Shown here piece after piece: positions 1-17,290 of a DNA stretch of 64,000 bases (position 1 is its first letter; every line of letters starts with the position of its first letter). This DNA comes from Desulfosudaceae bacterium (GTDB taxonomy: Bacteria > Desulfobacterota > Desulfobacteria > Desulfobacterales > Desulfosudaceae), in contig CAXXDV010000001.1 of NCBI GenBank assembly GCA_963674745.2, forward strand, positions 2,630,361 to 2,694,360, read 5' to 3'. The notes beneath the pieces are model-generated. The model saw only the letters and a program-made list of their open reading frames with translations, was not told the DNA's origin and did no database searches. Position numbers and translations under genes: made by a program.

Positions 1-840
1 CGTGTAATTCTTACTTCGGCCGTCACTGAAATTAATGACCAGGGCTTTCGCCTGGTTGTTTGTATTCACCAGGCTGACACCGGTCCAGAAGTTATTGTTT
101 GAAGCGATGTGTGAAATGTAAATGTTCGACGTGTTGATTTCTTTTACAGCCGGTATGGCCGTCCTGTATGCTCCTGATTGAAAGAATTTCGTATAACCTT
201 CAACCTCGGCAACCGTATTCGTGGAAAAAACGATGTAACCGATATTGGCGTGGTTGACAAAGTCATTGGCAACAGTGATTTGTTTGCGGCCCCGGGGCCC
301 AAGCGTAACGTCCATGACCTCCAGGAGGACACCACTGTTGCTTTTGGCCTTCAGCGTACCGTTGAGGGTCTGATTGGTACTGGTATTGATAATCGCAATC
401 TCCGTCTGCCAGGGCGACCGCGTGGTAACATGCGGGAAATAAAGATAGGTGACGTCCAAGGTATCAATGAAATACGCGGTCACGGATTTACTCTGTGAGG
501 CCGTGTTAACCGTTATCGAGTTGGTGGTGTATATAACCGTGCTGCCATTGGCCTCGACTTTCCAGTAGTCAAAGGCATACCCCGTTGCCGGGACCGCCGT
601 CAACGTATAAGTATCGCTGCACGTATAATCCGCGGGATAGTACGGTGGAATGGGGTTACCGGAAAAATCATTAGAGGACATATCACCACCACCGGCTGGG
701 CTGACATTCACGGTCAGCGCTGGGCCAGGTCAGGCGGCGGTTGCCGCACCGGGCATGATCAGGGTGATACAAGAGAAGGCAAGGATCAGGCAAAACAAAA
801 GAAGGCTTTTGTGGTTTAAAAAATGCGTTTTATATATCAT
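1..840 (-). CDS. Secreted paralog C (5' part, runs off the window): signal peptide, in-frame UGA (candidate Sec37), InlB-B-repeat-like domain, FPH...WxT repeats
   Basis: Hand translation: AAGGA RBS, ATG 840, MIYKTHFLNHKSLLLFCLILAFSCITLIMPGAATAA-TGA(730-732)-PGPALTVNVSPAGGGDMSS...YTCSDTYTLTAVPATGYAFDYW...YLYFPHVTTRSPWQTEIAIIN..., open to base 1 and clearly homologous to the two upstream paralogs. Absent from the ORF track. Confidence 0.85.
700..718 (-). promoter_or_regulatory. Candidate bacterial SECIS hairpin of paralog C
   Basis: GCTGAC-CGTGAAT-GTCAGC, a 6-bp stem starting 11 nt after TGA 730-732; possible lower stem ACC(U)GGC/GCCGGU. Confidence 0.7.
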
Positions 841-896
841 GTTTTTTTCCTTGTTTGTTGAAAAAATTGAACATTAACGAACGGAACGCAAGCCCA

Positions 897-2690
897 TCAG
901 TGTAAGGCTGGAAGCCCGTCCATCAGCAATCCGTCTGAAGAGGCGGTTAACTGAAACCCCACGATATTTTTGCTTGAGGTAAAGGCAATGTAACCGGCAA
1001 AAGAAACGTTCTGGGGTGCAAAGAAATTTTCCACCAGGTCCACTTTTTTGGCAAGACTGCCCACGGTGAAAGTGCGGGAGGCCAATGCCACGCCTTCGTT
1101 GGTGTAGGCTGTCAGCGTAATTGTAGCATCACCGGCTTCCGCGTTGACAAAGGCGATACCGGTCCATCCGTCGGCTTCGATTTTGGGGAAAATACCCTGC
1201 CTGGCCCCGGCACCGTTTCTTTCAGCGTAGGCGGCCATTTTATTGTTATCCAGGGTGCCGAAAAGTTCAAAACCGACCAGGGGCTGGGAAGCGTTGATCT
1301 TGAACCAGGCTGTCTCGGATGGCAGGTTAAGACCCCTAACCACACCGATATATTTTTCTTTTCCGCCGAGTACAAGTGTGGATTGGGTCAGCATTGCTCC
1401 TGTTACACTATAAGGGGTAATCGTAATCTGCGTGCTCAAGTTCCATGGATTGTAGGCGACGACACCTGTCCACCAGAAGGCCATATTGGCGATATGGGGA
1501 TAGTAAACGACGGAGGTGGTATCATCCGTCAGCAGAATGCCATCCAGATGCTTTAAACCGCCGAACATTTCCATGCCGAGAATGCCGTAGGCATTGGTGA
1601 TCACGGCAGACTGGATATCCGGTTGTGATCCACCCATCAGGCTGGAGATCGTAAATGCTTTATGCTCTTTGGCGTCAAGGGTTATTACAGCGGTTCGTCC
1701 GTTGTTAAAGGTAATAACCGGATTTTGAGGCGCTGAATTTGTATTCAAAAGGCTGATACCGGTCCAGAACCGTTCGTTCGAGGCAATGTGCGGAATATAA
1801 ATATTCTGTGTGTTGACCTCGGTTGCCGCCGGTACTGCCGCCCGGTAGAGCCCTTCCTGTGAGAACTGGGTATACCCCTGAAGGCCGGTATCGGCGGCGT
1901 AAAAGATGACGTAGCCAATGTTATCATCGGATACAAAGGGGTTGGAAAAGTCAGTTACAACATTGTACTCCAGTCGCTCGTGGGGCGCAATCGTGACAGA
2001 TTTGGTCTCTATCAGTTCTCCGGAATCACTGAATGCTTTCAGTTTTCCATTGATGCTTTGGGTGGCGTTGGTATTGATTATACCGATGACCGTTTTCCAG
2101 GGGAGGTCCGCGTAGATATGGGAGAAGTAGAGCGCAGGTGTTCCCTCTACTTCATCACCGGGACCCTGGTCTGTGTCATCGCCACCATCACCGTCGTCGC
2201 CACCATCACCGTCATCACCACCATCACCGTCATCACCGTTATCACCACCACCGGTTCCCGGAGGCGGCTGCGCGCCCGTGTTTGAAAAGTGGGCTGTCAC
2301 ATATTTGCTGTCTGTTTCAATGTTCACGGTAACCGGGTTCTGAGTGGTTGTGGACACGGTAATTGTTTCGCCGGTACAAGCCACAGTGATCGTTTCAATT
2401 TCCCAGTAAACAAAAGAATACCCGTCTGCCGCATTTGCTTCCGCTCTTAACGTGTATTCGGAACTGGTTGAAAAATTTTCCGGATATGTGTAAGGTGGGC
2501 GACTGAAACTATAGCCGAAATCATCGGAATAGATATCACCGCCGCCGGCCGGGCTGACATCCACGGTCAGCTTGGGACCGCCTCAAGCCAGTGCCTTTCC
2601 GGGGGTTGCCACCACAATGATGGTTAACGCCCAAATCGTGCAAGCGACAAAAAAATTAAGACTATGGAAGAAGATATTATTTCGTCCCAT
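897..2690 (-). CDS. Secreted paralog B, 597 aa with in-frame UGA (candidate Sec36); InlB-B-repeat-like domain, Gly/Asp linker, four FPH...WxT beta-repeat domains
   Basis: AAGGAGG RBS, ATG 2690, MGRNNIFFHSLNFFVACTIWALTIIVVATPGKALA-TGA(2583-2585)-GGPKLT, in frame with track ORF 897..2564. Confidence 0.85.
2176..2250 (-). repeat. 18-bp tandem repeat encoding a (GDDGDG)n acidic linker
   Basis: Repeated ccaccatcaccgtc(g/a)tc units; protein GGGDNGDDGDGGDDGDGGDDGDGGDDT; absent from paralogs A and C. Confidence 0.85.
2553..2571 (-). promoter_or_regulatory. Candidate bacterial SECIS hairpin of paralog B
   Basis: GCTGAC-CGTGGAT-GTCAGC, 11 nt after TGA 2583-2585; possible lower stem CGGUC/GGCCG. Confidence 0.7.
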
Positions 2691-2728
2691 ATTGTTCCTC
2701 CTTATTCGGAAGTTTCGTCAACGAACAA

Positions 2729-4384
2729 TCAATCAAGGGCCGGCAGTCCGTCTAACATCTTGTCGTCGGAAGATCCGTTCAGCTGAAAACCCACGACGTT
2801 TCTGTCCGAACGAAAGCCGATGTAACTGGCAATCGAGATGTTGCTGTTGGAAAAGATGCTTTCCGCCATCTTGACCACTTTGGCATGGCTGTTGACTCTG
2901 AGTGTCGCCGTAGCCACGTTCATCCCGTCGTTCCGGTAAGCGGTCAGGGTCACATTGGCGGGGCTTACTTCTGTATTAACAAAAGCAATGCCCGTCCAAC
3001 CGTCCTTTTCAAGCTTGGCAAAAGCACCTTGCTTACTTCCGGCACCGCTTTGTTCTGCATAAGCCGCCAGTTTCTGGTTATCCAGGGTGCTGAACAGCTC
3101 GAATCCGACCATCGGCGAAGTGGCGGTCAACCTGAACCAGGCCGTCTGATCGGGAAGGTTAAGGTTTCTGACCAGGCCGATATATTTATCATTTGGCCCG
3201 ATACTGATGGTTGAACCGGTCAGCGCGTTTCCCAACTCGGAGTAAGGCGTGACGGTTATCGTGTTGGTCGTGTTCGACGGGTTATAACCGACGATACCGG
3301 TCCACCATGATCGGGTGTCGGCCACGTGGGGATAATATATGGTAATCACCGTGTCGTCCGAAAGTACAATGCCATCCAACTGCGTATTTGTGCCGAAAAG
3401 TTCCAGGCCGACAATACCGCTGGCATTGGTAATCCTGGCCGATTTGATGTTCGGTTGCGCTTCACCTCCGAACAGGCTGGCGATGGTAAACGCCTTATGC
3501 TCGTAAGGGTTAAGCGTGACATTAGCCTGGCGGCCGTCATTAAACAGAATCGTCAGTTTCTTGGTCACGGAGCCCGAGTTGACCAGGCTTATTCCGGTCC
3601 AGAAATTGTCGTTGGAGGCAATATGCGGCACATAAATGTCGCCCGTGTTCGCCTCTTTTATGGCGGGAACGGCGGTTCTGAATTTTCCTTCCTGGTAAAA
3701 TTTCGTGTAACCAACGGCACCTTCTCTATCTCCATGAAAGGTAATGTGCCCGATTTCTTCCGGGTTCGAAAACCAGTCGCCAATGTTCAGCTCTCTCCGA
3801 CCATGGGGATAAAGGGTGATCGATTTGTTATCTATTACCTGGCCGCTGTCAGTGTAGGCCCTCAACGTGCCGAGCATGTTCTGATCAGCATTGGTGTTGA
3901 TAATGCATATTTCCGTTTCCCATGGTGATTTGGTGGACACGTGTGGAAAAAACAGGGATGGCGCTTGGCTGAGCTCAAGAAAATAGGCCGTAACAGATTT
4001 TCCCTCTTCTAAAATACTGACGCTAATGGGATTCTGGGTGGAAAAATCGGTTGATGATACGGTATCACCCTGGCAGGTACTCGTTATGGTGTCGACTTGC
4101 CAGTAGGAGAACACATATCCTGTTTCCGAGTTGGGCATTGCCATCAGGGTATAGCTGGTTGCACTTGAAAAATTTTCCGGATACGTGCTTGGCATATTGT
4201 TATACGTATCAAATTGATTTGACATAATATCTCCGCCGCCTGCCGGGCTGACATCCACGGTCAGCTTTGGGCCGCCTCAGGCAAAAGCGTTACCCGGCGT
4301 CATAATAGCGGCGCAAACCATAACCGGCAGCGCAATTAAAAAGAAAATTGTCAGACATTTTTTAAGCATACGCTTGTGAATCAT
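2729..4384 (-). CDS. Secreted paralog A, 551 aa with in-frame UGA (candidate Sec36); InlB-B-repeat-like domain plus four FPH...WxT repeat domains
   Basis: GGGAG RBS, ATG 4384, MIHKRMLKKCLTIFFLIALPVMVCAAIMTPGNAFA-TGA(4277-4279)-GGPKLT, in frame with track ORF 2729..4258. Confidence 0.85.
4247..4265 (-). promoter_or_regulatory. Candidate bacterial SECIS hairpin of paralog A
   Basis: GCTGAC-CGTGGAT-GTCAGC, 11 nt after TGA 4277-4279. Confidence 0.7.
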
Positions 4385-4565
4385 TTTTAAGTCTCCCTAA
4401 ATTAGTGCAATTTTTTACTGCTCTGGTCCGTACAGAAAGCACTGCTGAGTGGACAGGTTTTCTAAGAACTTTTCCAGACCTTCAGACACCCGTTATATAA
4501 TTTTAACGATTATATAATCGGATGATGATATTTCCCAGCTTTTTGTCAAAAAAAATAACGCTGTT

Positions 4566-4594
4566 ATTATGGGTTTTTTTTTAAGCCCTGTCAA
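4566..4594 (-). promoter_or_regulatory. Sigma70-type promoter for the paralog operon
   Basis: TTGACA (4594-4589), 17 nt spacer, CATAAT (4571-4566). Confidence 0.5.
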
Positions 4595-4682
4595 TATTTC
4601 ATATGTATTTCGTAGAGAATTTTCAATTTACTGATATCATGAAGGATAATTTATTTTGAAGCCATTATCGGGGTTATCGTCT

Positions 4683-5507
4683 TCAGGTAACATCAATTTT
4701 TTGGTTCAGGCGTTCGATGGTGGCGTTGATGTAGTCGTTATCCTCAATGTCAGCCACTATCGCCTGGTTCGGACATATAACCGCACACCGGCCGCATCCC
4801 CGGCAATTGTCATTAATGCACGCGACCCCCTCTTCCATGCCGATGCCGTCAAATATGCAGACACCTTCTGCGGTACAGGCGCCGCATCCCACGCAATCTT
4901 CCGTGACAAGCATTTTCAGGCCGGGCATGCGGCTATAATGATTCCCCAGTAACGGGTGGCTGCCGACCAACCCCCGTGTAATACAACAGCAGGGGCAACA
5001 CATACAGATCGTGAACAGCTTATCGCCCGGACCGATGCTCAGCCAGACCGTGTCGAGCTTGCTTTTGCCCACTGAAAAAACCAGCCCTTGCGCAGAGGCA
5101 TTGCGGACATGCGCTATCGCCTCTTCTACCGTTGCTTCACGACCGAGGTCAGGATGAATATCCCGTGCCGGTTCACCCAGAAAGATGCAGCCGATTTCAT
5201 GGGGGTAAGTCTCACAGGGCATGCATTCCCGGCAAATGCACTTGTGCATGATAAAACGGTAGCTTGCCTTTTCGATAAAATGTTCCGCCACCTTTGAGGG
5301 GAGAATGGTGTCCGGCCCTTTGTCAATCTCCTGATTGATGGTGATCACATTGTCATTCGGCAGGCAATAAAGCTCATCTCCCTCAAAATATTTTTTTTCA
5401 ATCATCCTGGCGAAAATTTTCATCCTGGCAGGATTGTATCTGGGAAATTTTTTAGGAAAGAATTTTTTGTAAAAGGCGACCTTTTTCAGCTGTTTTGCTT
5501 TATCCAC
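4683..5507 (-). CDS. 4Fe-4S ferredoxin-domain protein with Cys-rich central domain
   Basis: CICR...C, CMCCPCCC, CVGCGAC and CRGCGRCAVICP motifs. Confidence 0.8.
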   Translation of the reverse strand: MDKAKQLKKVAFYKKFFPKKFPRYNPARMKIFARMIEKKYFEGDELYCLPNDNVITINQEIDKGPDTILPSKVAEHFIEKASYRFIMHKCICRECMPCETYPHEIGCIFLGEPARDIHPDLGREATVEEAIAHVRNASAQGLVFSVGKSKLDTVWLSIGPGDKLFTICMCCPCCCITRGLVGSHPLLGNHYSRMPGLKMLVTEDCVGCGACTAEGVCIFDGIGMEEGVACINDNCRGCGRCAVICPNQAIVADIEDNDYINATIERLNQKIDVT

Positions 5508-5579
5508 GGCGTTGATCCTGATTATATTCGTTGATATTAAATCTCGGCTTTTGGGGAATCAAAAGTTTCATACCGGCTA

Positions 5580-6347
5580 TTATTGGACAGGTTTTGAAAA
5601 AGCCTTTTTGGGAAGGTCGAGGTCAACCTGGACCTCTACAGGGATTGGGTCCGGAACACGGGCGTTGACCATGACATTTTCCGGAAGGCTGACCTGAAAC
5701 ACGTCATCAACCGGCAGGCTGACATGGGTCGTCAGGTCAAGCGGCAAAGTGAAGACCTTGTTCACATGAACGGTTACATCCTGTTTTATGCGCACGTCAG
5801 CCAGCGTCTTAATGTGAACTGTTCGTTTGAACGGGATCGTGATGTTAATCGGAAAGATTCCGCTTACCGGAAGACTGACATTTTTCAGCCCCCAGAGATT
5901 GGTCTGGACCATAACGTCTTTCAATGGGATTTCGGCTTCAATGGGAACTTCGGTTTCGACGAATATTTCCTGGTCTATGGGGATTGAAATGGTTACGTCC
6001 AGCGGCACCGTAAAGTCGCTGTCAACAGGCACTTCTACGTCCTGCTGAAAGGGGATGTCGGCTTCCAGGACTTTGGAAAGCCTGACGGGGATGGGTCCTT
6101 TTGCCTCCACTGCCACCGGTGACCATGACGGCATTCTGGCCTGAACGGTTTTATTCAGCTGGTAGGAGGCAATGGGGTCCGGTGCTTTGTGGTAAAGATA
6201 TCGGACAATGCTGAAAGATACCAGCATCAGCAGAACAAAGATCAGGCCGAGCACGATCATTATGCCGGCGGCCCAGGCCAGAATCAATCTGGGACGCAAC
6301 CTCAAAGTATAGAACTCGTCCGGAGTGCTTTTCGAGGGCTGATCCAT
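5580..6347 (-). CDS. Hypothetical single-pass membrane protein with periodic V/I-P beta repeats
   Basis: Start moved to MDQPSK (6347) to avoid overlap with the upstream gene; N-terminal TM helix; repeats such as VEVPVD, FTVPLD, ISIPID, TEVPIE. Confidence 0.7.
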   Translation of the reverse strand: MDQPSKSTPDEFYTLRLRPRLILAWAAGIMIVLGLIFVLLMLVSFSIVRYLYHKAPDPIASYQLNKTVQARMPSWSPVAVEAKGPIPVRLSKVLEADIPFQQDVEVPVDSDFTVPLDVTISIPIDQEIFVETEVPIEAEIPLKDVMVQTNLWGLKNVSLPVSGIFPINITIPFKRTVHIKTLADVRIKQDVTVHVNKVFTLPLDLTTHVSLPVDDVFQVSLPENVMVNARVPDPIPVEVQVDLDLPKKAFSKPVQ

Positions 6348-6393
6348 TATTTTTATATATCTGTACAAAAACAGCTTGTCAATGATTTCAAGG

Positions 6394-8295
6394 TTATTGA
6401 GCAGCGCCCCTGGCCATGAACGGCGGAATGGGGATGTCCATGGCATAGGCCACCGCCCGCAACACTTCCGCCTCACTGACAGCGACCCGGCCGTCAAACA
6501 GGACACACTGGCAGCAGGCATCAAAAACCGTTTTTTTGACCCCGGGTGAAGCCTGTGACAGTCGTTCCAGCGCCGCATGCAGCGTTTTGACCGAAACTTT
6601 GGCCGATATTGTAGTGGACTCAGCGCCTCTGATCGGCAAGGCAGTTATCGCCGCCTGAAAAGCCTTGTCCGCGGTTTCTTTATCATTTCCGGTCCGGGCC
6701 AGTATGGATATCAGGGCAATGATGTCTTCTGTCAGGGGGGTGATATTCTTATACAACGTTCTGGGTGAATTGTTGACAAAGACGGCCTCCAGCCGGTGCC
6801 GGATGATCTCTTTGACTGAGAATTCAAAAAGCGTAATCTTTTTGTCGGCCTCAATAAGGGCCTGAAGATAATTTTTGAAATCGTCGAATTGTTCCGGTGA
6901 CATCTGCCTCAGCGTAGGGATGGCAAGATCAAGGACCGGCAGCCTCAGTTCAACCGGAAGATCTTTTACGTAAAAGTCCACAATTTCCAGCTGTCGAACA
7001 AATGAAGACGGGGCGGTCTCTTTGAGTATGTTGTATTGATTTTCTTTTTCGGCCGGGTTTTTATCCAGAAGAAGGGCGCAGACCACGACCGATGCCCCGA
7101 GCATATCCCGGGTTTCATGCTTGATGGGTTCCGGAATCGCGTCCAGGATGACAGCACTGTAGGCGACATTTTCAGGGGTTATGTTACCCACCGTTTCCAT
7201 GGCGCTGTCGGGGTTGATGGAAACGTCTCCGCCAGCCTGAAAAGAAGCGTAAGGCTGCGGTCCACTGATACCTGAAATCCCGGGCGTTGCCGTTTCCTTC
7301 CCCGCAGCAAGGGTAAAGTCCCCCGAAAATCCCGGTTCGATCCTCTGGATTCTTTCGGCCAGTGGCGGATGGGTGGCGAAAAAAGAGTTGATGGCCTTGC
7401 CGAAAAACATATGACAGGCTTCTCCGGCGGCCGGGGAATTGATTTCTGAACCGTTTGACAGGCCGCCTATTTTTTTCAGCGCCTGGGCAATTCCCGTACT
7501 CCGGGTGAATTGAACCGCCGAGGCATCGGCCAGGTATTCCCGCTGGCGTGAAACAGCGCTTTGAATGAGCCGGCCGACCAGCACACCGCCATAACCGATA
7601 ACCAGCAAAAGCAGGGCGACAATGGCGATCTGGCCGCTTCCCTTGCTGCTCCTCCTTGAGCTATAGGACCGCCTGGAAGAACCCCGGAGCGCTATCCTGC
7701 CGATTGTGGCAATCGCCATAATACCGCCCAGCAGGCCGATTAACCGGATGTTCAATCGCATGTCGCCGTTTAAGATATGGCTGAATTCATGGGCGATGAC
7801 ACCCTGCAGCTCTTCCCGCGTCAGCCGCTGGCAGCACCCCCTGGTAACGCCGATGACCGCGTCATTGGGCGAAAATCCGGCCGCAAAGGCATTGATGCCC
7901 TCTTCATTTTCCAGCAGGTATACAGGCGGAACCGGTATGCCCGAGGCGATAGCCATTTCTTCCACCACGTTCAGGAGTTTTCGCTGATCCGGATCTTTTG
8001 TCGCCGTATTGACAAGGTCTCCGCCCAGTCCTTCGGCGATATAACTGCCGCCTTTTGAAAGTGCCGTCATTTTGATGATGCTGCCAACGCAGATAACGGC
8101 AAATGTGATGCCTGCGATGGTCAGAAACAGGTCAGGGTCGTAAAAGGTCAGTCCGGGAACAGAAGAATTGTACATGACCACCGCCATGATCGCGGCATAA
8201 ACGCCCAGAACCACAAGAAGCACGGCGACGATAAAGAGAAAAACCAGCATACCCGTTTTGGATCTGGCTTTATCTTGCTGCTGAAAGAAATCCAT
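6394..8295 (-). CDS. M48 (HtpX-like) zinc metalloprotease with C-terminal TerB-like extension
   Basis: NAFAAG, HEFSH zinc motif, SRQREYLADA, THPP; downstream of lemA. Confidence 0.9.
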   Translation of the reverse strand: MDFFQQQDKARSKTGMLVFLFIVAVLLVVLGVYAAIMAVVMYNSSVPGLTFYDPDLFLTIAGITFAVICVGSIIKMTALSKGGSYIAEGLGGDLVNTATKDPDQRKLLNVVEEMAIASGIPVPPVYLLENEEGINAFAAGFSPNDAVIGVTRGCCQRLTREELQGVIAHEFSHILNGDMRLNIRLIGLLGGIMAIATIGRIALRGSSRRSYSSRRSSKGSGQIAIVALLLLVIGYGGVLVGRLIQSAVSRQREYLADASAVQFTRSTGIAQALKKIGGLSNGSEINSPAAGEACHMFFGKAINSFFATHPPLAERIQRIEPGFSGDFTLAAGKETATPGISGISGPQPYASFQAGGDVSINPDSAMETVGNITPENVAYSAVILDAIPEPIKHETRDMLGASVVVCALLLDKNPAEKENQYNILKETAPSSFVRQLEIVDFYVKDLPVELRLPVLDLAIPTLRQMSPEQFDDFKNYLQALIEADKKITLFEFSVKEIIRHRLEAVFVNNSPRTLYKNITPLTEDIIALISILARTGNDKETADKAFQAAITALPIRGAESTTISAKVSVKTLHAALERLSQASPGVKKTVFDACCQCVLFDGRVAVSEAEVLRAVAYAMDIPIPPFMARGAAQ

Positions 8296-8409
8296 TATGT
8301 TTCACCATTTATATCATATCAGCCTCTGGTCGTGGCCCGAGGATAAAGCATTTCTCAACATGGAACAATCTGTTAACGCGCAGTAAAGTCAAATTTTTTA
8401 TCTTAAATT

Positions 8410-9000
8410 TTAAAAAGATACTTTGGGCGCTTTTCGTTCTTCTTCCGACTCGGTTGACTCGAGAAGCTCGGCCGCGGTGAAATTGAACATATTGGCGATA
8501 ATGCTGTTGGGGAATTTTTCACGGCCGATATTATAGGATGTGACCGCGTCGTTAAAGGCCTGCCGGGCAAAAGCGATCCGGTTCTCAGTGGAGGTCAGTT
8601 CCTCCTGGAGCGCCAGCATGTTTTCGTTGGCTTTCAAGTCCGGATAACTTTCTGACAGGGCGAAGATGCGGCCGAGGGCGCCGGAAAGCACGCCTTCAGC
8701 ACTGGCCAGTCCCTGCATGGCGCCTGGCTCCCCGGGGTTCCGGGCGGCTTTGTCACTGGCGCTCATGGCGCTGCTACGGGCCTTGATAACCGCCTCGAGG
8801 GCCTCACGTTCATGTTTCATATACCCCTTGGCGGTTTCGACCAGGTTGGGTATCAGGTCATAGCGGCGTTTCAACTGGACATCTATCTGAGAAAAAGCGT
8901 TCTTATAGCGATTTCTAAGGGTCACCAGGTTGTTGTACAGGCCGACGATAAAAATGATCAGCACCACAATAATGCCTAAAAAAACCAGAATCGCAATCAT
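8410..9000 (-). CDS. lemA: LemA family protein
   Basis: YNNLV...QIDVQLKRRYDLIPNLV, ESYPDLKAN; GGAGGAGG RBS before ATG 9000. Confidence 0.95.
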   Translation of the reverse strand: MIAILVFLGIIVVLIIFIVGLYNNLVTLRNRYKNAFSQIDVQLKRRYDLIPNLVETAKGYMKHEREALEAVIKARSSAMSASDKAARNPGEPGAMQGLASAEGVLSGALGRIFALSESYPDLKANENMLALQEELTSTENRIAFARQAFNDAVTSYNIGREKFPNSIIANMFNFTAAELLESTESEEERKAPKVSF

Positions 9001-9039
9001 TGATTCCTCCTCCAAATCGTTAAAAGATTATTATTTGTC

Positions 9040-11538
9040 TCAGACCATATCCGGTGTCGCGACCGGCACCGGTCCGACCTTCCAGATATCGCGGCAGTAT
9101 TCAGCAATGGCGCGGTCCGACGTGAACATACCCATCCGCGCCACATTTAATATTGACATACGATGCCAGCGGTCGGGCAGATTAAAGGCCCTTCCCACGG
9201 CTTCCTGACATTGCACATAAGCGGTATAGTCGGCCAGGACCATGAATTCATCCCTGGCCAGCAGGGAATCAACCAGCGGGGTAAACAGGCCGCTGTCCCC
9301 GCCGGAGAAGGTGCCGCCGCTGATCATGTCCAGCACCGCCCGCAATTCATCATTCTGCCGGATGACTTCACGAGGGTTGTATCCCTGTTGTTTTGTCACG
9401 GCCACCTGATCCGCTGTCAGGCCGAACAGGAAAAAATTTTCCGGCCCCACTGATTCCCGGATTTCCAGGTTGGCGCCATCCAGGGTGCCGATGGTTAAGG
9501 CACCGTTTAACGAGAATTTCATGTTGCCCGTACCCGAGGCTTCTTTGCCGGCGGTTGATATCTGTTCTGACAAATCCGCAGCCGGGTAAATCCGCTGGGC
9601 GTTTTTGACGTTAAAATCCGGATAAAAGATTACCTTGATCCGGCCCTGAATGTGGGGATCATTGTTGATGACGTCGGCCACGCCGTTAATCAGGCGGATA
9701 ATCAGCTTGGCCCGGGTATAACCGGGGGCTGCCTTGCCGCCGAAAATAAAAGTCCGGGGAGGGGCGTCCGGGTCAAGTCCCTGCTTGAACCGGCGGTAGA
9801 GGGTGATAATATGCAGCACATTCAAGTGCTGGCGTTTGTATTCATGGATCCGCTTGACATGAATATCAAACATGGTGGAAGGGTCCACGGTCGTCCCGGT
9901 TTGTTTTTTGATCATGTCGGCCAGGCGGATTTTACACTGGTGCTTTACTTCTGCCCATTGGGCGCAAAAGCCGCTGTCATCCGCAAACGGTTCCAGGCCT
10001 TTGAGCTGATCAAGGTCATTTATCCATCCCTTACCGATGGCCCGGGAAATCAAACCGGTCAGCCCGGGGTTGGCCAGGACCATGAAACGTCTGGGGGTGA
10101 CACCGTTGGTTTTGTTTGAAAATTTTTCCGGCCACAGGTCAAAAAAATCTTTAAGTACGGTCTGCTTCAGAAGGTCGGTATGAAGCGCCGCCACACCATT
10201 GATGGCGTGGCTTCCCACGCAGGCCAGATGCGCCATACGAACATGCTTTTCTCCGGTCTCGCCGATCAGTGACATCCTTTCCAGCCGCTGGTTATCGCCG
10301 GGAAAACGGCGGCTGACAGCATCCAGAAAACGTTGGTTGATCTCATAAATAATTTCCATGTGCCGCGGCAGCAGTCGGCCGAACAGGGAAACGGGCCAGG
10401 TCTCCAGTGCCTCGGGCAGCAGGGTGTGGTTGGTATAGGCGAACAGTTTCGTGGTTATCCGCCAGGACCGCTCCCAACTCAGGTTATAGGCATCCACCAG
10501 CAGTCGCATCATTTCACTTATGGCCACGGCCGGATGGGTATCGTTTAACTGTACCACGAATTTGTCGGGCAATCGCTTCAGGTCGGTCTCCCGCTGAAAG
10601 AATACGCGCAGCATGTCTGAAAGGGAACAGGCGACAAAGAAATATTGCTGCTCCAGCCGCAGCCTCCGGCCGGCTTCGGCCTCATCGTTGGGGTAAAGGA
10701 CCTTGGTGATGTTTTCCGATACCACTTTCTGGGCAACGGCCTTGTAATAATTGCCCATGTTGAATGCTTGAAAGTCGAAAGATTCTCGGGCTTCAGCCTG
10801 CCAGAGCCTGAGAATAATAGCGTTTTTGACGCCATACCCTAAAACCGGCGTGTCAAAGGGCGTGCCCAGAACGGAACGTTCAGCCAGCCAGCGAACCCGA
10901 TAACGGCCCTGTTCATCCCGGTAAGCCTCGGTGTGGCCGCCGAAATTGACTTCGATGCGACGTTCCGGGTGGGGGACTTCCCAGGGATTGCCGAAGCGCA
11001 GCCATTTATCAGCGATTTCAACCTGCCAGCCGTCTTTGATGACCTGATCGAAAATGCCGTATTCGTATCGGATGCCATACCCGAAGGCCGGTACCTGAAG
11101 CGTGGCCAGAGAATCAAGGTAGCAGGCCGCCAGCCGTCCCAGGCCGCCGTTTCCAAGGCCGGGTTCTTCTTCCTGTTCCAGCAGTTCGTCCAGCGAAAGG
11201 CCCAGTTCCGTCATGGCCTGGTTGACGACCTCCCAGAGGCCCAGGTTGATGATGTTATTGCCCAACTGAGGTCCCAGGAGATATTCAGCCGAGAGGTAAA
11301 TCACGGTGCGGCTGTCCTGATTGAAATAGGTGTGGGCACTGTGAATCCAGCGCTGCAGGACCCGGTCCCGGATGACGTAAGACAGCGCCAGGTAATAATC
11401 GTTGAGGGTGGCTACTTCCGGAAATTTGGCGCGCATGGAAAACAGCTTCTCGGTCAGGTCCTTTTTAATCGCTTCAACGGAATTGTCGAAAAACGGCTCG
11501 GGTAGCTGGGTATTTTCCGGGTTGCGTATTGTCTCCAT
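9040..11538 (-). CDS. glgP: Glycogen/alpha-glucan phosphorylase
   Basis: GLGNGGLGRLAAC, QLNDTHP, YTNHTLLPEALE, EASGTGNMK PLP-lysine motif. Confidence 0.97.
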   Translation of the reverse strand: METIRNPENTQLPEPFFDNSVEAIKKDLTEKLFSMRAKFPEVATLNDYYLALSYVIRDRVLQRWIHSAHTYFNQDSRTVIYLSAEYLLGPQLGNNIINLGLWEVVNQAMTELGLSLDELLEQEEEPGLGNGGLGRLAACYLDSLATLQVPAFGYGIRYEYGIFDQVIKDGWQVEIADKWLRFGNPWEVPHPERRIEVNFGGHTEAYRDEQGRYRVRWLAERSVLGTPFDTPVLGYGVKNAIILRLWQAEARESFDFQAFNMGNYYKAVAQKVVSENITKVLYPNDEAEAGRRLRLEQQYFFVACSLSDMLRVFFQRETDLKRLPDKFVVQLNDTHPAVAISEMMRLLVDAYNLSWERSWRITTKLFAYTNHTLLPEALETWPVSLFGRLLPRHMEIIYEINQRFLDAVSRRFPGDNQRLERMSLIGETGEKHVRMAHLACVGSHAINGVAALHTDLLKQTVLKDFFDLWPEKFSNKTNGVTPRRFMVLANPGLTGLISRAIGKGWINDLDQLKGLEPFADDSGFCAQWAEVKHQCKIRLADMIKKQTGTTVDPSTMFDIHVKRIHEYKRQHLNVLHIITLYRRFKQGLDPDAPPRTFIFGGKAAPGYTRAKLIIRLINGVADVINNDPHIQGRIKVIFYPDFNVKNAQRIYPAADLSEQISTAGKEASGTGNMKFSLNGALTIGTLDGANLEIRESVGPENFFLFGLTADQVAVTKQQGYNPREVIRQNDELRAVLDMISGGTFSGGDSGLFTPLVDSLLARDEFMVLADYTAYVQCQEAVGRAFNLPDRWHRMSILNVARMGMFTSDRAIAEYCRDIWKVGPVPVATPDMV

Positions 11539-11569
11539 GCCGGGCTCTCCAAGTTATTCGTTTTGTGTG

Positions 11570-11599
11570 AAAAAAAGTTCTCCGCTGTTTCAACGGAGA
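11570..11599 (-). terminator. Intrinsic terminator-like hairpin in the glgP 5' leader
   Basis: UCUCCGUUG-AAA-CAGCGGAGA, a 9-bp stem followed by AC and U7. Confidence 0.5.
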
Positions 11600-11807
11600 T
11601 GGCAAAGAGCTTATATTTTAATCTTTTCATGTAGTTATGGCAAAGCTCCAGGAATTTGTCAAGGAGAAAGAATGAAGCGGTCAGGTTGTTGAGTTTTTTT
11701 ACGGGTTAAAAAAATCTCGTTGCACCGGATCACACCTTTTGTTAGAAAACAGATAGCTTTCTGTTAAAAAATATTAAGTGCAAATACATATCGGGCATAT
11801 TTTAATC

Positions 11808-13043
11808 ATGAGCGTTGAGACTGTAATATTGATATGCGGTTATATTTTCGGATTTTACATGGCCTGGAATATCGGTGCCAATGACGTGGCCAATTCCATG
11901 GCCTCTGCCGTGGGTGCCCGGGCGATTACCCTGCGTCAGGCGGTTTTTATCGCCGGTATACTGAATATTATCGGCGCGGTCTTTGTCGGGTCCCATGTGA
12001 CCAATACGATTTGTAAAGGCATTGTTTCTACCGAGGTAATGACCGATCCGACAATGGCCATGCTGGGGGCCTTGTCGGCACTCCTGGCCGCGGCTGTCTG
12101 GGTGTCCTTTGCCACCTGGAAATCCCTGCCGGTTTCAACCACCCACTCAATTGTAGGGGCCATGGTCGGATACGGCCTTGTTACCGGCGGATTTTCGGTA
12201 GTGCAGTGGGGAAAACTGGGGGCGGTGGTGGCCAGCTGGATCATTTCCCCGTTTTTCAGCTTTCTTCTGGCCTATTTTATGTTTAAATTTATTATCAAGG
12301 TTATCTATAACAGAAAAGACGCCTCCGGCATGGCCTTGAAGTTCTCCCCCCTGTTTGTCGGGCTGGCCCTGTTTATTGTCGCGCTCTCTTTTTTGTTTAA
12401 AACACCGCTGGGTAAATCGCTTTCACTCAGCGTACCGTCGGCGCTGTTTTATGCCCTGATTCTCGCCGTATGCGGCGGCTTTCTGGGCAAGCTGCTGATC
12501 AGTCGTTTTGGAATGAAACACGAGGGGGATGAGACGGAAACCGTTTTCCGGCGCATTCAGGTGGGGACATCATGTTATGTGGCGCTGGCCCAGGGCGCCA
12601 ATGACGTGGCCAATGCCATCGGTCCCCTGGCGTTGATTTATTATATTGTTAAAAGCGGTTCCGTGGCCGGAATCAAAACGGTTCCGGTACCGGCGATGTT
12701 GCTGGCCTTTGGCGGCCTGGGCATTGCCGCCGGGATTGCCATGGCCGGCCGACGCGTGATTGAAACAGTGGGATCCAGGATTACAACGCTTAACAATACC
12801 CGGGGCTTTTCGGTGGATTTTGCCGCAGCCACGACCGTTATGGCGGCCTCAAAGATGGGGCTGCCGGTGTCCACAACTCATGCCGCAGTCGGTGGGGTCA
12901 TCGGGGTCGGTCTTGCCCGGGGTTTTGACGCGGTTAATTTTCGCGTTATATATGAAATCGCTCTGTACTGGGTGCTGACCGTGCCGATGGCGGCTGTCAC
13001 CAGTATCGTGATTTTTAAGATACTTCAGTATTTTATTTATTAA
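11808..13043 (+). CDS. Inorganic phosphate transporter (PiT family)
   Basis: Two GANDVAN motifs, LPVSTTH twice, multiple TM helices. Confidence 0.95.
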   Translation: MSVETVILICGYIFGFYMAWNIGANDVANSMASAVGARAITLRQAVFIAGILNIIGAVFVGSHVTNTICKGIVSTEVMTDPTMAMLGALSALLAAAVWVSFATWKSLPVSTTHSIVGAMVGYGLVTGGFSVVQWGKLGAVVASWIISPFFSFLLAYFMFKFIIKVIYNRKDASGMALKFSPLFVGLALFIVALSFLFKTPLGKSLSLSVPSALFYALILAVCGGFLGKLLISRFGMKHEGDETETVFRRIQVGTSCYVALAQGANDVANAIGPLALIYYIVKSGSVAGIKTVPVPAMLLAFGGLGIAAGIAMAGRRVIETVGSRITTLNNTRGFSVDFAAATTVMAASKMGLPVSTTHAAVGGVIGVGLARGFDAVNFRVIYEIALYWVLTVPMAAVTSIVIFKILQYFIY

Positions 13044-13056
13044 AGGAGGCGTTAAA

Positions 13057-13725
13057 ATGCGTATTCCGCTTGTTTCCATGTTTATCACTTCCCCTTTTGC
13101 CGACCTTCAGGAACACGCTGAAAAATTGCAGGAGTGTGCCTGTGCCTTTCAGCAGGCAATGGAGTGCCATATGTCCGATAAGTGCAGCACGTTTGAAAAC
13201 CATAAAGGCAAGGTGGATGAAATTGAAAGAGAGGCCGATGCCATCAAGCGGCGCATCCGCGGCCATTTACCCAAGGGGACCCTCCTGGCGGTGGATAAAT
13301 TCCAGTTGTTCCGATATCTTAGAGAACAGGACAGTGTTCTTGATTCCATGAAGAGCGCCCTGAGCTGGTTGTCGTACCGGGAGTCTCCGGGCATCCCCCC
13401 GGAATTGAAGAAGGATTTTGCCAAACTGGTCGACAGCGCCATTGACCCCATAGACGCCCTGAACGAAATGCTGACGGAAGCGCGGAAATACTTTAACAGT
13501 TTTTCGGAAAAACAGCGCGTTGTCGTCAAGGATATCATCAGTATTCTTCGCCAGAAAGAACATGATTCAGACCAGGTGGAGCATGCTTTGAAGCAGAAGA
13601 TTTTTTCGGTGAATACGGATCCGGTCACGATTTTTCATGCCCTGATGCTGGCTGAAAAAATTGGGGACATTGCCGATCACGTGGAAAATGCCGGGGACAT
13701 GATGCGGGCCATGGTGGCCCGGTAA
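13057..13725 (+). CDS. DUF47/TIGR00153 Pit accessory (PhoU-like) protein
   Basis: EREADAIKRRIR and IGDIADHVEN motifs; AAAGGAGG RBS; follows Pit. Confidence 0.9.
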   Translation: MRIPLVSMFITSPFADLQEHAEKLQECACAFQQAMECHMSDKCSTFENHKGKVDEIEREADAIKRRIRGHLPKGTLLAVDKFQLFRYLREQDSVLDSMKSALSWLSYRESPGIPPELKKDFAKLVDSAIDPIDALNEMLTEARKYFNSFSEKQRVVVKDIISILRQKEHDSDQVEHALKQKIFSVNTDPVTIFHALMLAEKIGDIADHVENAGDMMRAMVAR

Positions 13726-13762
13726 TCCGGTCGTGATATGTCCCGGAAGGGATATTAGTAGA

Positions 13763-13789
13763 TTGACAGTTGCAAATCGCTGGTATAAT
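13763..13789 (+). promoter_or_regulatory. Sigma70 promoter (extended -10) for the OmpA gene
   Basis: TTGACA 13763-13768 and TG-G-TATAAT ending at 13789; the 15 nt spacer is short. Confidence 0.45.
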
Positions 13790-13853
13790 ATTTATGGCCA
13801 GTTCGGTTTAAAAAATGGCGGATCACTAAATATATTTTAAAAAGGGGACGGGC

Positions 13854-14498
13854 ATGAAACATCGCGGCTTTTTATTGGTTGTTATAGTTTGTTCGGTTCT
13901 GGTGCTGTCCGGTGCCACGGCAGGTTATTGCACCAACGCGTTGACGATGACTCAGGGCAACGGCTGTGTTAATTCGAATATGGATGTAAACGATTATATC
14001 GCCGTTGGTGTCGGCAGGACGCATTATCTGGGCGGCCAGGACGCGGGTGGGGCGAACACCATAGTGGTGGCCCAAAAAGAATCGTTGATCGGCCATGACG
14101 GCGGGTCACTGGAGGGAATCTGCCGTTGCTCGGGGATGCCGGATGGGGCTGATGTGGATGAACGCGGCTGCTGGGTTGTGGCGCACTTTGAATTCGAAAA
14201 AGCCAATATCACAACCGCCAGTGCCGACAAGCTGGATGAAGCAGTCGGCGTTTTGAAGAATGATCCGGACTTGAACATTGAAATTCAGGGGCATACCTGC
14301 AGTATGGGCCCGTTGCTTTATAACCAGGTCCTGTCTGAAAAACGGGCCAAGGCGGTTTATGACTATTTGATTCTTCAAGGGATTAATGCACCCCGCATGA
14401 GCTACAAAGGTTTTGCGTATAAAAAACCGGCCGCTTCTAACGAAACACTTTCGGGACGGAAATTGAACCGGCGTGTTGAATTCCAGCCGGTCGAATAA
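13854..14498 (+). CDS. OmpA-family peptidoglycan-binding protein
   Basis: Signal peptide, OprF-like CxGxPxGxxVDxxGC linker, IEIQGHT...NQVLSEKRA...NRRVEF. Confidence 0.9.
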   Translation: MKHRGFLLVVIVCSVLVLSGATAGYCTNALTMTQGNGCVNSNMDVNDYIAVGVGRTHYLGGQDAGGANTIVVAQKESLIGHDGGSLEGICRCSGMPDGADVDERGCWVVAHFEFEKANITTASADKLDEAVGVLKNDPDLNIEIQGHTCSMGPLLYNQVLSEKRAKAVYDYLILQGINAPRMSYKGFAYKKPAASNETLSGRKLNRRVEFQPVE

Positions 14499-14610
14499 CT
14501 GAATTCGTCCCAATTTTATTTGTGTTTTTCCAGGAAGGCATTCAGTTGCCCTGTTGCGGTGGCAGCGGGGAAATCACTGTCCCGAACAAGATAGAGACAT
14601 AGTTGGTTTA

Positions 14611-15726
14611 TTGAACCGTCGATCTTTTCTGAAAACAACCTTTGCCCGGTGTCTGGAACTTTTTTCCATGGGGGTTCTGGCATATTTTTTTCCCCGGGAC
14701 TCGGCCCTGGCGGCAGCGCCCGGCCAAAATTCGGTTGACCGCTTAAAAGGCCTTTCCCTTAAAAAATGGTGCCAGGAAAAACGCCATCACAGAAACGGCC
14801 GTTATCTGAACCCCTTCACCCCTTTCGAGCATAAAAACTTCTGGGGCTTGCTGCGCTGGAAACTGCTCTCTAAAAACCATTTCAAATCTTATTATCACCA
14901 GGAAAAGGTTGTCCCGGTTGATATCAACTGGGAGACGATTGAAGCCCAGAAGGGATGTGCGGTGACCTATATCACTCATTCCTGCGTCATGGTCAAGGAT
15001 CTGGATCGATATATCCTGGTGGATCCGATTTTCTTCGGGCTTTTCGGCTTTAAAAATTTTACCCCCCTGACCGATCGGGCCGCGCGGGTTCCCCAACCGG
15101 ATCATGTCCTCATTACCCATGGCCATTACGATCACCTGGACGTCGACACGTTGAAGCAATTTGACCGGGACACCCATGTGGTCTCACCGCCCGGGTACCG
15201 GGTCATTTTTCGTGATCTGGGAATGACCCGCCATTCCCAGTTGGACTGGTTTGAGTCTTACACCGACGATGGTAGAGAGATTCTGTTTCTGCCCTGTAAT
15301 CACTGGACCATGCGCAATCCCCTGGCCGGCCCGAACGATGCCCTGTGGGGGTCATACCTGATTAAAGGCCGAACCGCCAATATTTTTATCAGCGGGGATC
15401 TGGGCTGGTTTGACCATTTTGAGGAGATCGGAGAAGCCGGGCCGATTGATCTGGCCATATTCAATCTCGGTGCCTATGAACCGCGATGGTTCATGAAAAG
15501 TTCTCATATCAATCCGGCTGAAACGGTCAGCGCGTTTAAGGCCTTGAACGCCAGGCACCTGATGATTATTCACTGGGGAACCTTCCGCCTGGGAGACGAA
15601 CCGGTGCACTTCCCGCCGAAGGATATCCGCCATGAAATGGAACGGCAGGGACTGGCCGACCGCCTGATTCATTTGAATCACGGTCAGACCGTGTGTTATG
15701 ACCGGCACCAATTTGATATTATTTGA
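14611..15726 (+). CDS. Tat-exported metallo-beta-lactamase-fold hydrolase (NAPE-PLD/RomA-like)
   Basis: NRRSFLK twin-arginine motif, ITHGHYDHLD, GAYEPRWFM, IHWGTF; start uncertain. Confidence 0.85.
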   Translation: MNRRSFLKTTFARCLELFSMGVLAYFFPRDSALAAAPGQNSVDRLKGLSLKKWCQEKRHHRNGRYLNPFTPFEHKNFWGLLRWKLLSKNHFKSYYHQEKVVPVDINWETIEAQKGCAVTYITHSCVMVKDLDRYILVDPIFFGLFGFKNFTPLTDRAARVPQPDHVLITHGHYDHLDVDTLKQFDRDTHVVSPPGYRVIFRDLGMTRHSQLDWFESYTDDGREILFLPCNHWTMRNPLAGPNDALWGSYLIKGRTANIFISGDLGWFDHFEEIGEAGPIDLAIFNLGAYEPRWFMKSSHINPAETVSAFKALNARHLMIIHWGTFRLGDEPVHFPPKDIRHEMERQGLADRLIHLNHGQTVCYDRHQFDII

Positions 15727-17290
15727 AGTTTTTGATTGTCCAGTGGTAGGTCCCGTATAGTTTCTGCCTGTAAAGATTGAAAAGGGTCCGTTCCTGTTCC
15801 GGGCTGCGGGTAACCAGGAGCCCGATGATGATGGCGGCGGTAACAAATATGGCCAGAATTTTTTGACTGTTATTACCTGTTGCATATGCCGGCGCGCTGC
15901 TCCTTATCCGGTAGCCGAGTACGAGAAGCAAGACAATTGCCAGGACAATAACCGCCAGTCCGATCAGCACTCCCGTAGACCTGCCAAAACCGATCGCACT
16001 GAGTATCGTGTCCGGCAGATAACCCATTTTCATGAGCGGTATCATCAGTTCGAATATCGGGTTTTTGAATACCGGCGGTGTGTGGGGCATGATGATAATG
16101 CCCGGAAGCACCAGGAGAATCGAGAGTACCAGCAGAAGTCCCCAGGCCCGGCTTCGAACAGGGCTGAAAAAAAGCGCTAGTGTTAAAAACGGAAGCGTGG
16201 GGACAAGATACCGGGGACCATATGTCCATCCGCCGTGCCATCCGAAATAACCGCTGATCAGGAAAAAATACCAGAGCGCAATTGAGCTGATGACCACCAT
16301 TTCAGGACGGAACCGGGCTGAACGCCACATCCGCCACAACCCGATCAGGCTGAAAAAGTACACGGGCATTAAGAAAAAAAAGCCCCGGGACGGCGAGAAA
16401 AGCAGCATGATTAATGAACGCGGCTGGGGGAAACTGATGCCGAGGAATCCTTTGGCCGTTCCTTCAGCGAATTCGTCCAGTGCCAAGTGATGATAGCCGG
16501 TTGAAAAGAAAGACCCGAAACATTGAAAATTATATGCCAATACAAACATCAGGGGAATGGCCGCGCCAAAAGAAAAAAACACGATACGGGAAAACGGCGG
16601 CCTCAGCCAGAAAAGGTAGCCGAACAGGACAATGACGATAAAAAGAGAGGTGTATTCGCAGGCAAAACCGAATCCGGTAAAAAGGCCGCCCGAAAAGGCC
16701 AAAAGTGACGTGAAGGACGCGTCTTTTTCATCGCTTGTGCGCCTTAAACGCATTAAACAGGTAAACCCGAAAAAGAACAATATGCCTGTCATCAGATGCC
16801 CGCTGAAATACTGTGAATGACTCCAGGCGATACTGCCGAAGGCAAAAGCCAATACACCCGGCAGGGCACAGAAAACGTCATCGGTCCATCTCAGGCCGAC
16901 GTGAAAAAGCACCAGGCCTGCAATGGCAAACAACAGGCTGTTGGTTAAAAGATTAATAAGGTGTCGGTGCCAGAAAAAAAGAACCGGTTTGTCCCTGGCG
17001 GGAAAAATTTTTTTGATCAGCCAGTATGCCGGTGCGCCGATCATGGCCGCGCCGGGTGCCTTATTTGAATATTGGTGGCCCCCGTTTATCGAGACATCGA
17101 TTGTCTGAAAATGGGGGAGTCGCTGCAGGTGATCAATCGCATAGGTGTGATGATCGACCATTGCGCTGATCAGCATGAGACGGGTACGGGAATTGTCATA
17201 ATCAACCGGTTGATGGAAATACCCGCTGGCAAAAAAAAGCGTCAGAAAAAGCAAGATGTTGATTAATATTCTGGTTGTGTAATTTCTCAA
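15719..17290 (-). CDS. Multi-pass membrane protein, probable GT-C glycosyltransferase
   Basis: Many TM helices, YSNKAPG, LFSPSRG and WHGGWTYGPRYL motifs. Confidence 0.65.
   Translation of the reverse strand: MRNYTTRILINILLFLTLFFASGYFHQPVDYDNSRTRLMLISAMVDHHTYAIDHLQRLPHFQTIDVSINGGHQYSNKAPGAAMIGAPAYWLIKKIFPARDKPVLFFWHRHLINLLTNSLLFAIAGLVLFHVGLRWTDDVFCALPGVLAFAFGSIAWSHSQYFSGHLMTGILFFFGFTCLMRLRRTSDEKDASFTSLLAFSGGLFTGFGFACEYTSLFIVIVLFGYLFWLRPPFSRIVFFSFGAAIPLMFVLAYNFQCFGSFFSTGYHHLALDEFAEGTAKGFLGISFPQPRSLIMLLFSPSRGFFFLMPVYFFSLIGLWRMWRSARFRPEMVVISSIALWYFFLISGYFGWHGGWTYGPRYLVPTLPFLTLALFFSPVRSRAWGLLLVLSILLVLPGIIIMPHTPPVFKNPIFELMIPLMKMGYLPDTILSAIGFGRSTGVLIGLAVIVLAIVLLLVLGYRIRSSAPAYATGNNSQKILAIFVTAAIIIGLLVTRSPEQERTLFNLYRQKLYGTYHWTIKNFK

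Follow-up and report, generated by a model that had tools for sequence, protein, structure and literature searches.

A 64-kb window in the 5.55 Mb genome of a Desulfosudaceae bacterium (three contigs, C1, C2 and C3) carries three genes, termed A, B and C, in each of which an in-frame TGA codon is followed by the same short RNA hairpin. This hairpin is very probably a bacterial selenocysteine insertion sequence (SECIS) element, as described by the general model of such elements, in a family of exported adhesin-like selenoproteins. The family is apparently new and undescribed, whilst the recoding mechanism would be an ordinary one. On a ribosome positioned at the UGA, SelB in complex with GTP and Sec-tRNA(Sec) would bind apically to the hairpin that lies 11 nt beyond this codon (in some homologues 14, 17 or 20 nt), and the UGA would then be decoded as selenocysteine (Sec, U) rather than as a stop. 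The hairpin would be written into the codons of the first β-strand (LTVxVS) of an immunoglobulin (Ig)-like domain resembling the InlB B-repeat, and its synonymous sites would be frozen because it doubles as β-strand codons. It is from comparison of the sequences that we infer SelB binding, Sec insertion and the signal-peptide cleavage site. The features of the three genes were as follows.

4247..4265, minus strand: putative SECIS hairpin of gene A, GCUGAC/CGUGGAU/GUCAGC, −7.0 kcal/mol, 17 nt from UGA to loop; codons (AA)G CTG ACC GTG GAT GTC AGC, encoding (K)LTVDVS
4277..4279, minus strand: in-frame TGA, codon 36 of gene A, probably read as Sec
4280..4384, minus strand: signal-peptide part of gene A, MIHKRMLKKCLTIFFLIALPVMVCAAIMTPGNAFA
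2729..4384, minus strand: gene A, 551 codons plus a TGA stop at 2729-2731; signal peptide, U36, InlB-B-repeat-like Ig domain and four more β-sandwich repeats, in that order
4392-4397, minus strand: Shine–Dalgarno-like GGGAGA of gene A
2553..2571, minus strand: putative SECIS hairpin of gene B, GCUGAC/CGUGGAU/GUCAGC
2583..2585, minus strand: in-frame TGA, codon 36 of gene B, probably read as Sec
897..2690, minus strand: gene B, 597 codons plus a TGA stop at 897-899; architecture as gene A with an additional Asp/Gly-rich linker
2697-2703, minus strand: Shine–Dalgarno sequence AAGGAGG of gene B
700..718, minus strand: putative SECIS hairpin of gene C, GCUGAC/CGUGAAU/GUCAGC
730..732, minus strand: in-frame TGA, codon 37 of gene C, probably read as Sec
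1..840, minus strand: 5' part of gene C, which runs off the start of the window (541 codons with a TAA stop in the genome)

The pattern GCTGAC-N7-GTCAGC was matched three times in the window (700-718, 2553-2571 and 4247-4265), compared with a mean of 0.00 in 100 dinucleotide-preserving shuffles. A first-pass annotation had placed the hairpins at these positions, each 11 nt behind a TGA, and had described stems identical down to the wobble positions, a change confined to the loop and variable neighbouring codons, all of which was confirmed. On the minus strand the hairpin read GCTGACCGTGGATGTCAGC at 4265..4247 and 2571..2553, and GCTGACCGTGAATGTCAGC at 718..700. In each gene the in-frame TGA was followed, after exactly 11 nt, by GCUGAC-CGUGRAU-GUCAGC; all stem bases were identical and the sole difference was G or A in the loop. 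The hairpin is read in the frame xxG CTG ACC GTG RAT GTC AGC, encoding x-L-T-V-D/N-V-S, and the flanking codons differed between the three genes (GGC/GGT, CCA/CCC, AAG/GCG, CCG/CCA and GCA/GCC). The genes are tandem minus-strand paralogues whose proteins are 46–53 % identical, each with a Shine–Dalgarno-like motif 6–7 nt ahead of the upstream ATG.

The exact hairpin was found six times in the genome. Five copies lay 11 nt behind an in-frame TGA, in genes A, B and C and in two further genes, D (C1:1646226, plus strand; its TGA and hairpin copy at C1:1646334, plus strand) and F (C3:1353066, minus strand; its TGA and hairpin copy at C3:1352958, minus strand); the sixth copy had a different loop and no TGA. 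Genes D and F have only the N-terminal module in common with A–C, comprising the signal peptide, U, a short linker and the InlB-B-repeat-like domain, and in D and F this module is followed by two PKD domains. Directly after D lies a paralogue, E, with Cys (TGT) in the U column and one continuous frame, in which the corresponding codons CTT CAC GTC AGG GTC AAC formed no hairpin. Given the peptide xLTVxVS and the codon usage of the genome, the exact codons have a probability of 0.0015 per gene; they were present in all five TGA genes and in none of the four other LTV.VS peptides encoded in the genome.

Relatives were collected with a profile (A1) of the N-terminal module, built from 14 Sec and two Cys rows, which found matches in 87 genomes when run on 401 from the class. 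Of the 150 matches listed, all those of at least 54.6 bits that reached the N-terminus contained exactly one TGA, except for two Cys paralogues; the homologue counts given below refer to the 45 distinct TGA genes, from 22 genomes, among these matches. The TGA occupied the same alignment column in all 45, and Cys was found in this column in the two paralogues only. A hairpin with a loop beginning CGUG was present in 45 of the 45 TGA-bearing homologues (at least 22 of the 401 genomes), with a spacing from UGA to stem of 11 nt in 36 genes, 14 nt in four, 17 nt in four and 20 nt in one. In an AT-rich relative all 19 nt were unchanged, at a spacing of 17 nt.

All six stem pairs were formed in 43 of the 45 TGA genes, and five in the other two, whereas none of 28 TGA-less copies formed all six (five pairs in two copies, four or fewer in 26). 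The TGA-less control consisted of the distinct copies of the homologous domain in loci L018–L084 (E ≤1e-5) after removal of duplicates and of rows with a gap in the Leu column. It included copies with the same peptide LTVNVSP, encoded as CTT ACA GTG AAT GTG TCA, which forms no hairpin, or as CTC ACG GTG AAT GTA AGT; both Cys-codon paralogues were likewise without the hairpin. The first-pass annotation had proposed RNA-level selection for recognition by SelB, a view at odds with a hairpin kept equally well in Cys-codon or Sec-less homologues. It was not so kept, and the proposed selection is supported by the association with TGA, by the covariation described next and by the Sec machinery of the genome, with SelB as the probable binding partner.

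In the 45-row alignment (44 distinct rows), 99.2 % of stem cells were paired and changes on both sides were seen at three of the six pairs, values reached in none of 500 shuffles; with the 3' arm slid along the alignment, 15–53 % were paired. Pair 1, most commonly G-C, was U-A in two rows, A-U in one and U.U in two; pair 2 (commonest C-G) was U-A in two rows; pair 5 (commonest A-U) was G.U in three; and pair 6 (commonest C-G) was U-A in one. The compensatory changes included some that altered amino acids, T to V together with V to I, and L(CTG) to L(TTG) together with S to K, as selection on pairing predicts. The residue before Leu was widely variable across all 45 genes (P, E, T, K, A, L, S and others), and the third base of its codon was G in 33 of the 36 genes with a spacing of 11 nt. 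RNAalifold, applied to the alignment from UGA−6 to +57, independently predicted this hairpin and no other (−7.86 kcal/mol). A scan of window positions 1-5000 against Rfam, with E up to 10, gave only chance matches to snoRNA and lncRNA models under the gathering scores. The base after the Sec UGA was also G in 33 of the 36 spacing-11 genes, mostly as part of a Gly codon, and selection at this position may act on the residue or on the UGA-G context.

The genome possesses the apparatus for Sec decoding. The tRNA-Sec was found at 75.1 bits (cut-off 47), SelA at 607.9 bits and SelB at 369.8 bits (canonical selB, C1:1156265-1158157); selD is of the Sec type, with a U-x-x-K context, so that selA, selB, selC and selD, as demanded by the SECIS model, are all present. 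Within the class, SelB was found in 380 of the 401 genomes; of the 22 genomes with the family, 20 have it and the other two are 87 % complete. TGA serves as terminator in 981 of the 2704 open frames of at least 300 codons, and genes A and B also end in TGA, which excludes a changed genetic code (TGA as Trp or Gly).

In a scan for TGAs lying in frame between two stretches of coding potential, 118 candidates were obtained, of which 20 were chosen by eye and searched against Pfam. In 13 of these 20 a Pfam family spanned or adjoined the TGA, and five others looked spurious. The genes identified in this way encode three FlpD/MvhD proteins, one AhpC/TSA peroxiredoxin, two formate dehydrogenase α subunits, four HdrA-like proteins, one SelD, one CCG/HdrD-like protein and one DUF1573 protein. 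The hairpins of 15 other selenoprotein genes of the genome lay 10–20 nt after the UGA (4 nt in one MvhD) and had G-rich loops, and the family hairpin falls within this range. Those of FdhA, the UshA-like proteins and the peroxiredoxin were 10–12 nt after the UGA, with loops GUC, GGUCU, GUCU and AGUU, and those of HdrA and others 15–20 nt.

Some of these genes merit separate description. The CCG/HdrD-like Fe-S protein (C1:1158522-1159838, minus strand) has its in-frame TGA at U244, lies directly upstream of selB and carries an 8-bp hairpin 15 nt after the UGA. The DUF1573 candidate (C1:1137281-1138090) has a signal peptide and the motif T-G-U-G-C. Two more exported candidates, with CGU and HTU motifs and no Pfam match (C2:107103-108170 and C3:233888-234949), have signal peptides and GGUCUU-type SECIS loops 11–12 nt after the UGA; judged by motif alone, they look like members of the UshA-like family. 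A second full-length SelB-like gene (C3:1795409-1797292, minus strand) scored 239.9 bits against a cut-off of 242.25, and two SelB matches at E ≤1e-60 were found in a minority of the 401 genomes. A second SelB dedicated to the hairpin was considered and rejected, as two SelB-like genes were present in only three of the 22 family-bearing genomes and a relative of the same genus with five family genes has one SelB-like gene.

The proteins share an N-terminal organization consistent with export. A leader with a hydrophobic core preceded the TGA in all 45 genes (median 35 aa; 29–40 aa in 41 of the 45), 44 leaders had K or R near the N-terminus, and a Shine–Dalgarno-like motif stood ahead of the upstream start in 40. 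The consensus around U was A(−4)-x-[A/G](−2)-[G/A](−1)-U-G-[G/N]-P-x-L-T-V, with G or A at −1 in 43 of the 45 genes, G at +1 in 33 and P at +3 in 29; in genes A and B an A-x-A motif ends directly at U. The A at −4 and −2 fits cleavage by signal peptidase I one residue before U. The mature chain is accordingly predicted to carry Sec at residue 1 or 2, in a short, flexible U-G-[G/N]-P tail, and to have the N-terminal peptide [G/A]-U-G-G-P-K-LTVDVSPAGGGD.

The Ig-like domain following the tail scored above the PF18998 gathering cut-off of 23.6 bits in genes C (27.4 bits), D (33.8 bits) and E (28.9 bits) and below it in A, B and F. An AlphaFold2 model of gene A was all-β, with five β-sandwich domains (predicted local distance difference test score, pLDDT, 87.9; predicted template modelling score 0.82). 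Residues 1–34 were disordered in this model, and confidence was low over U36 and the start of the linker, to about residue 40. A Foldseek comparison of the model with the PDB returned generic multi-β-sandwich proteins only (α-2-macroglobulin, complement C5 and repeat adhesins; template modelling score ≤0.16) and no enzyme fold. The C-terminal domain of about 400 aa had weak matches to DUF5719 and is elsewhere fused to proteases, rhodanese, BACON and other domains. Database homologues covering 90–93 % of gene A are 498–508 aa long, compared with 551 aa, are labelled 'hypothetical protein' and, like the window's own gene call, have been called from a start behind the TGA.

Two further features of the proteins were observed. 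A Cys in the Ig-like domain (F/Y-T-C-S, at about residue 73 of gene C) is present in C, D, F and several relatives and is replaced by Ser in A and B; in some members it could be the selenylsulfide partner of the N-terminal Sec. Across the genome, about 18–20 large predicted proteins, including D, E, F and relatives, end in a Gly/Ser-rich stretch, C-F-[I/L/V] and five to nine residues (e.g. GGSGGCFIEQLRK; examples of ORF ends are C1:1647242, C1:1648589, C3:1352040, C1:2506756, C1:413606 and C3:1573572). This ending resembles a short C-terminal tag with a Cys, for sorting or processing, and no NCBIfam model matched it.

An exact-pattern scan covering one genome per species gave at least 118 loci, among them at least 23 family members with leader, TGA and hairpin. 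The records of these members are titled as Desulfobacteraceae, Desulfococcaceae, Desulfosalsimonadaceae, Desulfobacterales and 'Deltaproteobacteria' metagenome-assembled genomes (MAGs), together with two Syntrophaceae and three Dehalococcoidales. The three records titled as Dehalococcoidales MAGs (Chloroflexota; L132, L146 and L174) have the leader–TGA–hairpin arrangement with the identical 19 nt at a spacing of 14 or 17, which suggests either horizontal transfer of the family or mis-binned contigs. At least four of the pattern loci had an incidental TGA and no leader.

Several observations weigh against the SECIS assignment. In at least 91 of the pattern loci (at least 118) the same 18 specified bases occurred without an upstream TGA, and the sequence alone is therefore not diagnostic; these loci and those with an incidental TGA were mostly in GC-rich genomes. 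Pair 1 is a U.U mismatch in two genes. The covariation events are few, in about three to four lineages, and 39 of the 44 distinct rows have an identical stem, so that the main weight rests on the contrast between genes with and without TGA and on the frozen synonymous sites. Cys homologues, commonly abundant for true selenoproteins, were rare, with two found. The bare hairpin (−7.0 kcal/mol by ViennaRNA; −10.3 kcal/mol in gene D and −7.86 kcal/mol for the consensus) is slightly weaker than the minimum free energy cut-off of −7.5 kcal/mol or lower given for the bacterial model in the available part of a review (PMC13188914), although the energy model behind that cut-off may differ. Finally, the bulged U (U17, 5' arm) reported in the accessible text on the Escherichia coli fdhF element (PMC8659212) is absent from the continuous 6-bp stem of the family.

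Among the alternatives, the one that survives best accepts the hairpin as a real SECIS element and gives it a mainly regulatory role, with synthesis of the surface proteins gated by selenium supply and the selenol chemically idle. The placement of Sec on a flexible tail outside the folded domains (low pLDDT to about residue 40), the existence of homologues without any Cys or Sec, and the harmless leader peptide that termination at the UGA would yield are all in keeping with such a gate. The conserved [G/A]-U-G-[G/N]-P and the Cys of the two paralogues suggest instead that the residue itself is under selection, and we know of no precedent for selenium-gated synthesis of a surface protein; this explanation is considered unlikely.

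Read-through of the UGA by a near-cognate tRNA (Trp, Cys or Arg), with the hairpin as a generic stimulator, would be compatible with so short a hairpin, but is very unlikely in a genome whose Sec system is complete and in which hairpins are similarly placed in at least 15 other selenoprotein genes. The G[U] loop signature is that of SelB-binding elements, the spacing fits the SECIS model, SelB accompanies the family in all but the two incomplete genomes, and U and C correspond among the paralogues. Slightly less probable again is that the TGA is a true stop ending a 35-aa leader peptide, with the downstream frame translated separately and the hairpin serving coupling or regulation. Gene callers do begin downstream (498–508 aa rather than 551 aa), and a GTG is available within the hairpin loop. 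However, no Shine–Dalgarno sequence is visible between the TGA and this GTG, the product would be a five-domain β-sandwich, adhesin-like protein without a signal peptide, an in-frame signal-peptide-like leader ends 0–1 residue before the TGA in all 45 genes, and two paralogues carry the aligned Cys in one continuous frame.

The weakest proposal, a hairpin without RNA function that is a by-product of the LTVxVSP peptide and codon bias, can appeal to the peptide being kept in Sec-less homologues, to CTG and ACC being the commonest Leu and Thr codons here (0.51 and 0.53) and to the chance occurrence of the same bases in GC-rich genomes, but is highly improbable given the joint codon probability of 0.0015 per gene set against five of five genes here and 45 of 45 overall, the lack of a full stem in all 28 TGA-less copies, those with the identical peptide included, the G closing the variable preceding codon in 33 of 36 genes, the compensatory nature of amino-acid-changing substitutions (T to V with V to I) and the unchanged hairpin of the AT-rich relative.

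With the hairpin taken as a SECIS element, the role of the selenol can be considered. To our knowledge, the known bacterial selenoproteins are, with few exceptions, redox enzymes that carry Sec in the active site. A Sec in the free N-terminal tail of an Ig-like protein that is exported suggests that selenium is used differently here. Our guess is that the selenol acts as a reactive handle by which the protein is covalently tethered at the cell envelope or binds metal or sulfur there, and this role is favoured over selenium-gated regulation, its main alternative. In its most specific form, the proposal casts these as the first selenoproteins to place Sec at position 1 or 2 of a mature protein that is exported and non-enzymatic (adhesin- or S-layer-like), with the selenol as a covalent hook, which we regard as possible but on balance doubtful. 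The U-G-G-P tail would then tether the protein to a partner in the envelope through Se-S or Se-Se or, as the other option, provide a selenium ligand for metal, sulfur or mineral surfaces. The ratio of Sec to Cys in the family (45 to two) suggests that sulfur cannot do the job. If true, such a hook would extend the use of the 21st amino acid beyond redox catalysis in a new way.

The family is mis-annotated in databases as N-truncated 'hypothetical proteins' without a signal peptide. Its recognition adds at least five selenoprotein genes in this genome and dozens in relatives, and corrects the predicted cellular location of the products. The hairpin also shows an RNA signal written into a conserved β-strand, and a nearly invariant SECIS of 19 nt could be a portable tag.

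No description of the family was found in a full-text literature search, in which the families of Haft & Tolstoy (2025) were covered via the table of a 2026 review (PMC13188914). That table, in the part of the review that was available, lists 119 families, with no InlB-repeat/Ig-like family, nor any whose mature N-terminus carries Sec. The eight families of Haft & Gwadz, as described in the accessible text, and the nine deep-Sep families in the available part of PMC12013277 differ from the hairpin family. The peptides LTVNVSP, LTVDVSP and LTVTVSP were absent from the accessible supplement of the latter and from that of BSepDB (PMC13326102; about 4.0 million characters, possibly incomplete). 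In NCBIfam release 20 no family matched genes A–C, and genes D–F had matches in the PKD region only.

Other features were noted around the three genes. In gene B, a low-complexity acidic linker (Asp/Gly codon run GDDGDGGDDGDGGDD..., window 2160-2260, minus strand), absent from A and C, lies between the Ig-like domain and the C-terminal repeats. Upstream of gene A, about 290 nt of AT-rich intergenic DNA with runs of T and A (window 4385-4673) are presumed to be the promoter region of the gene array. The ten ORFs beyond gene A (4683-17290) gave Pfam matches to unrelated housekeeping families (M48 peptidase, LemA, glycogen phosphorylase and PHO4).

In the available part of the review (PMC13188914), the bacterial SECIS consensus model (bSECISearch) is given as a loop of 3–9 nt on a stem of 4–16 bp, with a G as the first or second loop base, in most cases next to a G or U on its 3' side, and a distance from UGA to loop of 16–37 nt. 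The family hairpin, with a loop of 7 nt and a stem of 6 bp (7 bp in gene D), lies within these ranges; its loop start CGUG, invariant in all 45 genes, places G at position 2, followed by U, and the distance from UGA to loop (17 nt in 36 genes, 20 in four, 23 in four and 26 in one) fits as well. Its sequence was nearly invariant over the 22 genomes, whereas SECIS elements usually keep their shape but not their sequence.

The first-pass annotation had likened the hairpin to the E. coli fdhF element, whose minimal SelB-bound upper stem-loop, in the accessible text of PMC8659212, comprises 17 nt, starts 11 nt after the UGA and has a G-U in the apical loop. The likeness held for the 11-nt start, the location of the stem-loop within the coding sequence and the G-U of the apical loop. 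It did not extend to the bulged U, the fdhF loop is about 4–6 nt compared with 7 nt (CGUGNNN) in the family, and family homologues are also spaced at 14, 17 and 20 nt; it is therefore the general model that fits, rather than fdhF in detail. In the same genome, the hairpins of FdhA, peroxiredoxin, HdrA, UshA-like and DUF1573 genes have 5–8 bp and lie 10–20 nt after the UGA (4 nt in one MvhD), with loops such as GGUCU, GUCU, AGUU and AGGU, and those of FdhA and the UshA-like proteins share the 10–12 nt spacing. They are mostly of 7–8 bp with loops of 3–5 nt, compared with 6 bp and 7 nt in the family.

At the protein level, lipoproteins resemble the family in having a chalcogen residue right after the signal peptide, G or A at −1 (43 of the 45 genes) and a Gly-rich stretch thereafter. 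The lipobox consists of [LVI][ASTVI][GAS] ahead of the modified Cys at +1. The family does not conform to it, with D, E or K at −3 in 14 of the 45 genes and Leu in two, and a reading of Sec as the lipobox residue was rejected on position −3. Sec-less InlB B-repeat (PF18998, Flg_new_2) surface proteins share the Ig-like domain and its first strand LTVxVSP, but lack the TGA, the hairpin and an N-terminal U/C tail. The DUF1573 (UGC) and UshA-like (CxU) proteins, families that appear in the available part of the review (PMC13188914), likewise combine a signal peptide with Sec in genomes of the sulfate-reducer type, and both are found here. Their Sec is located inside a folded domain with a Cys nearby, whereas in the family described here it would be residue +1 or +2 of the mature protein, on a tail preceding the Ig-like domain.

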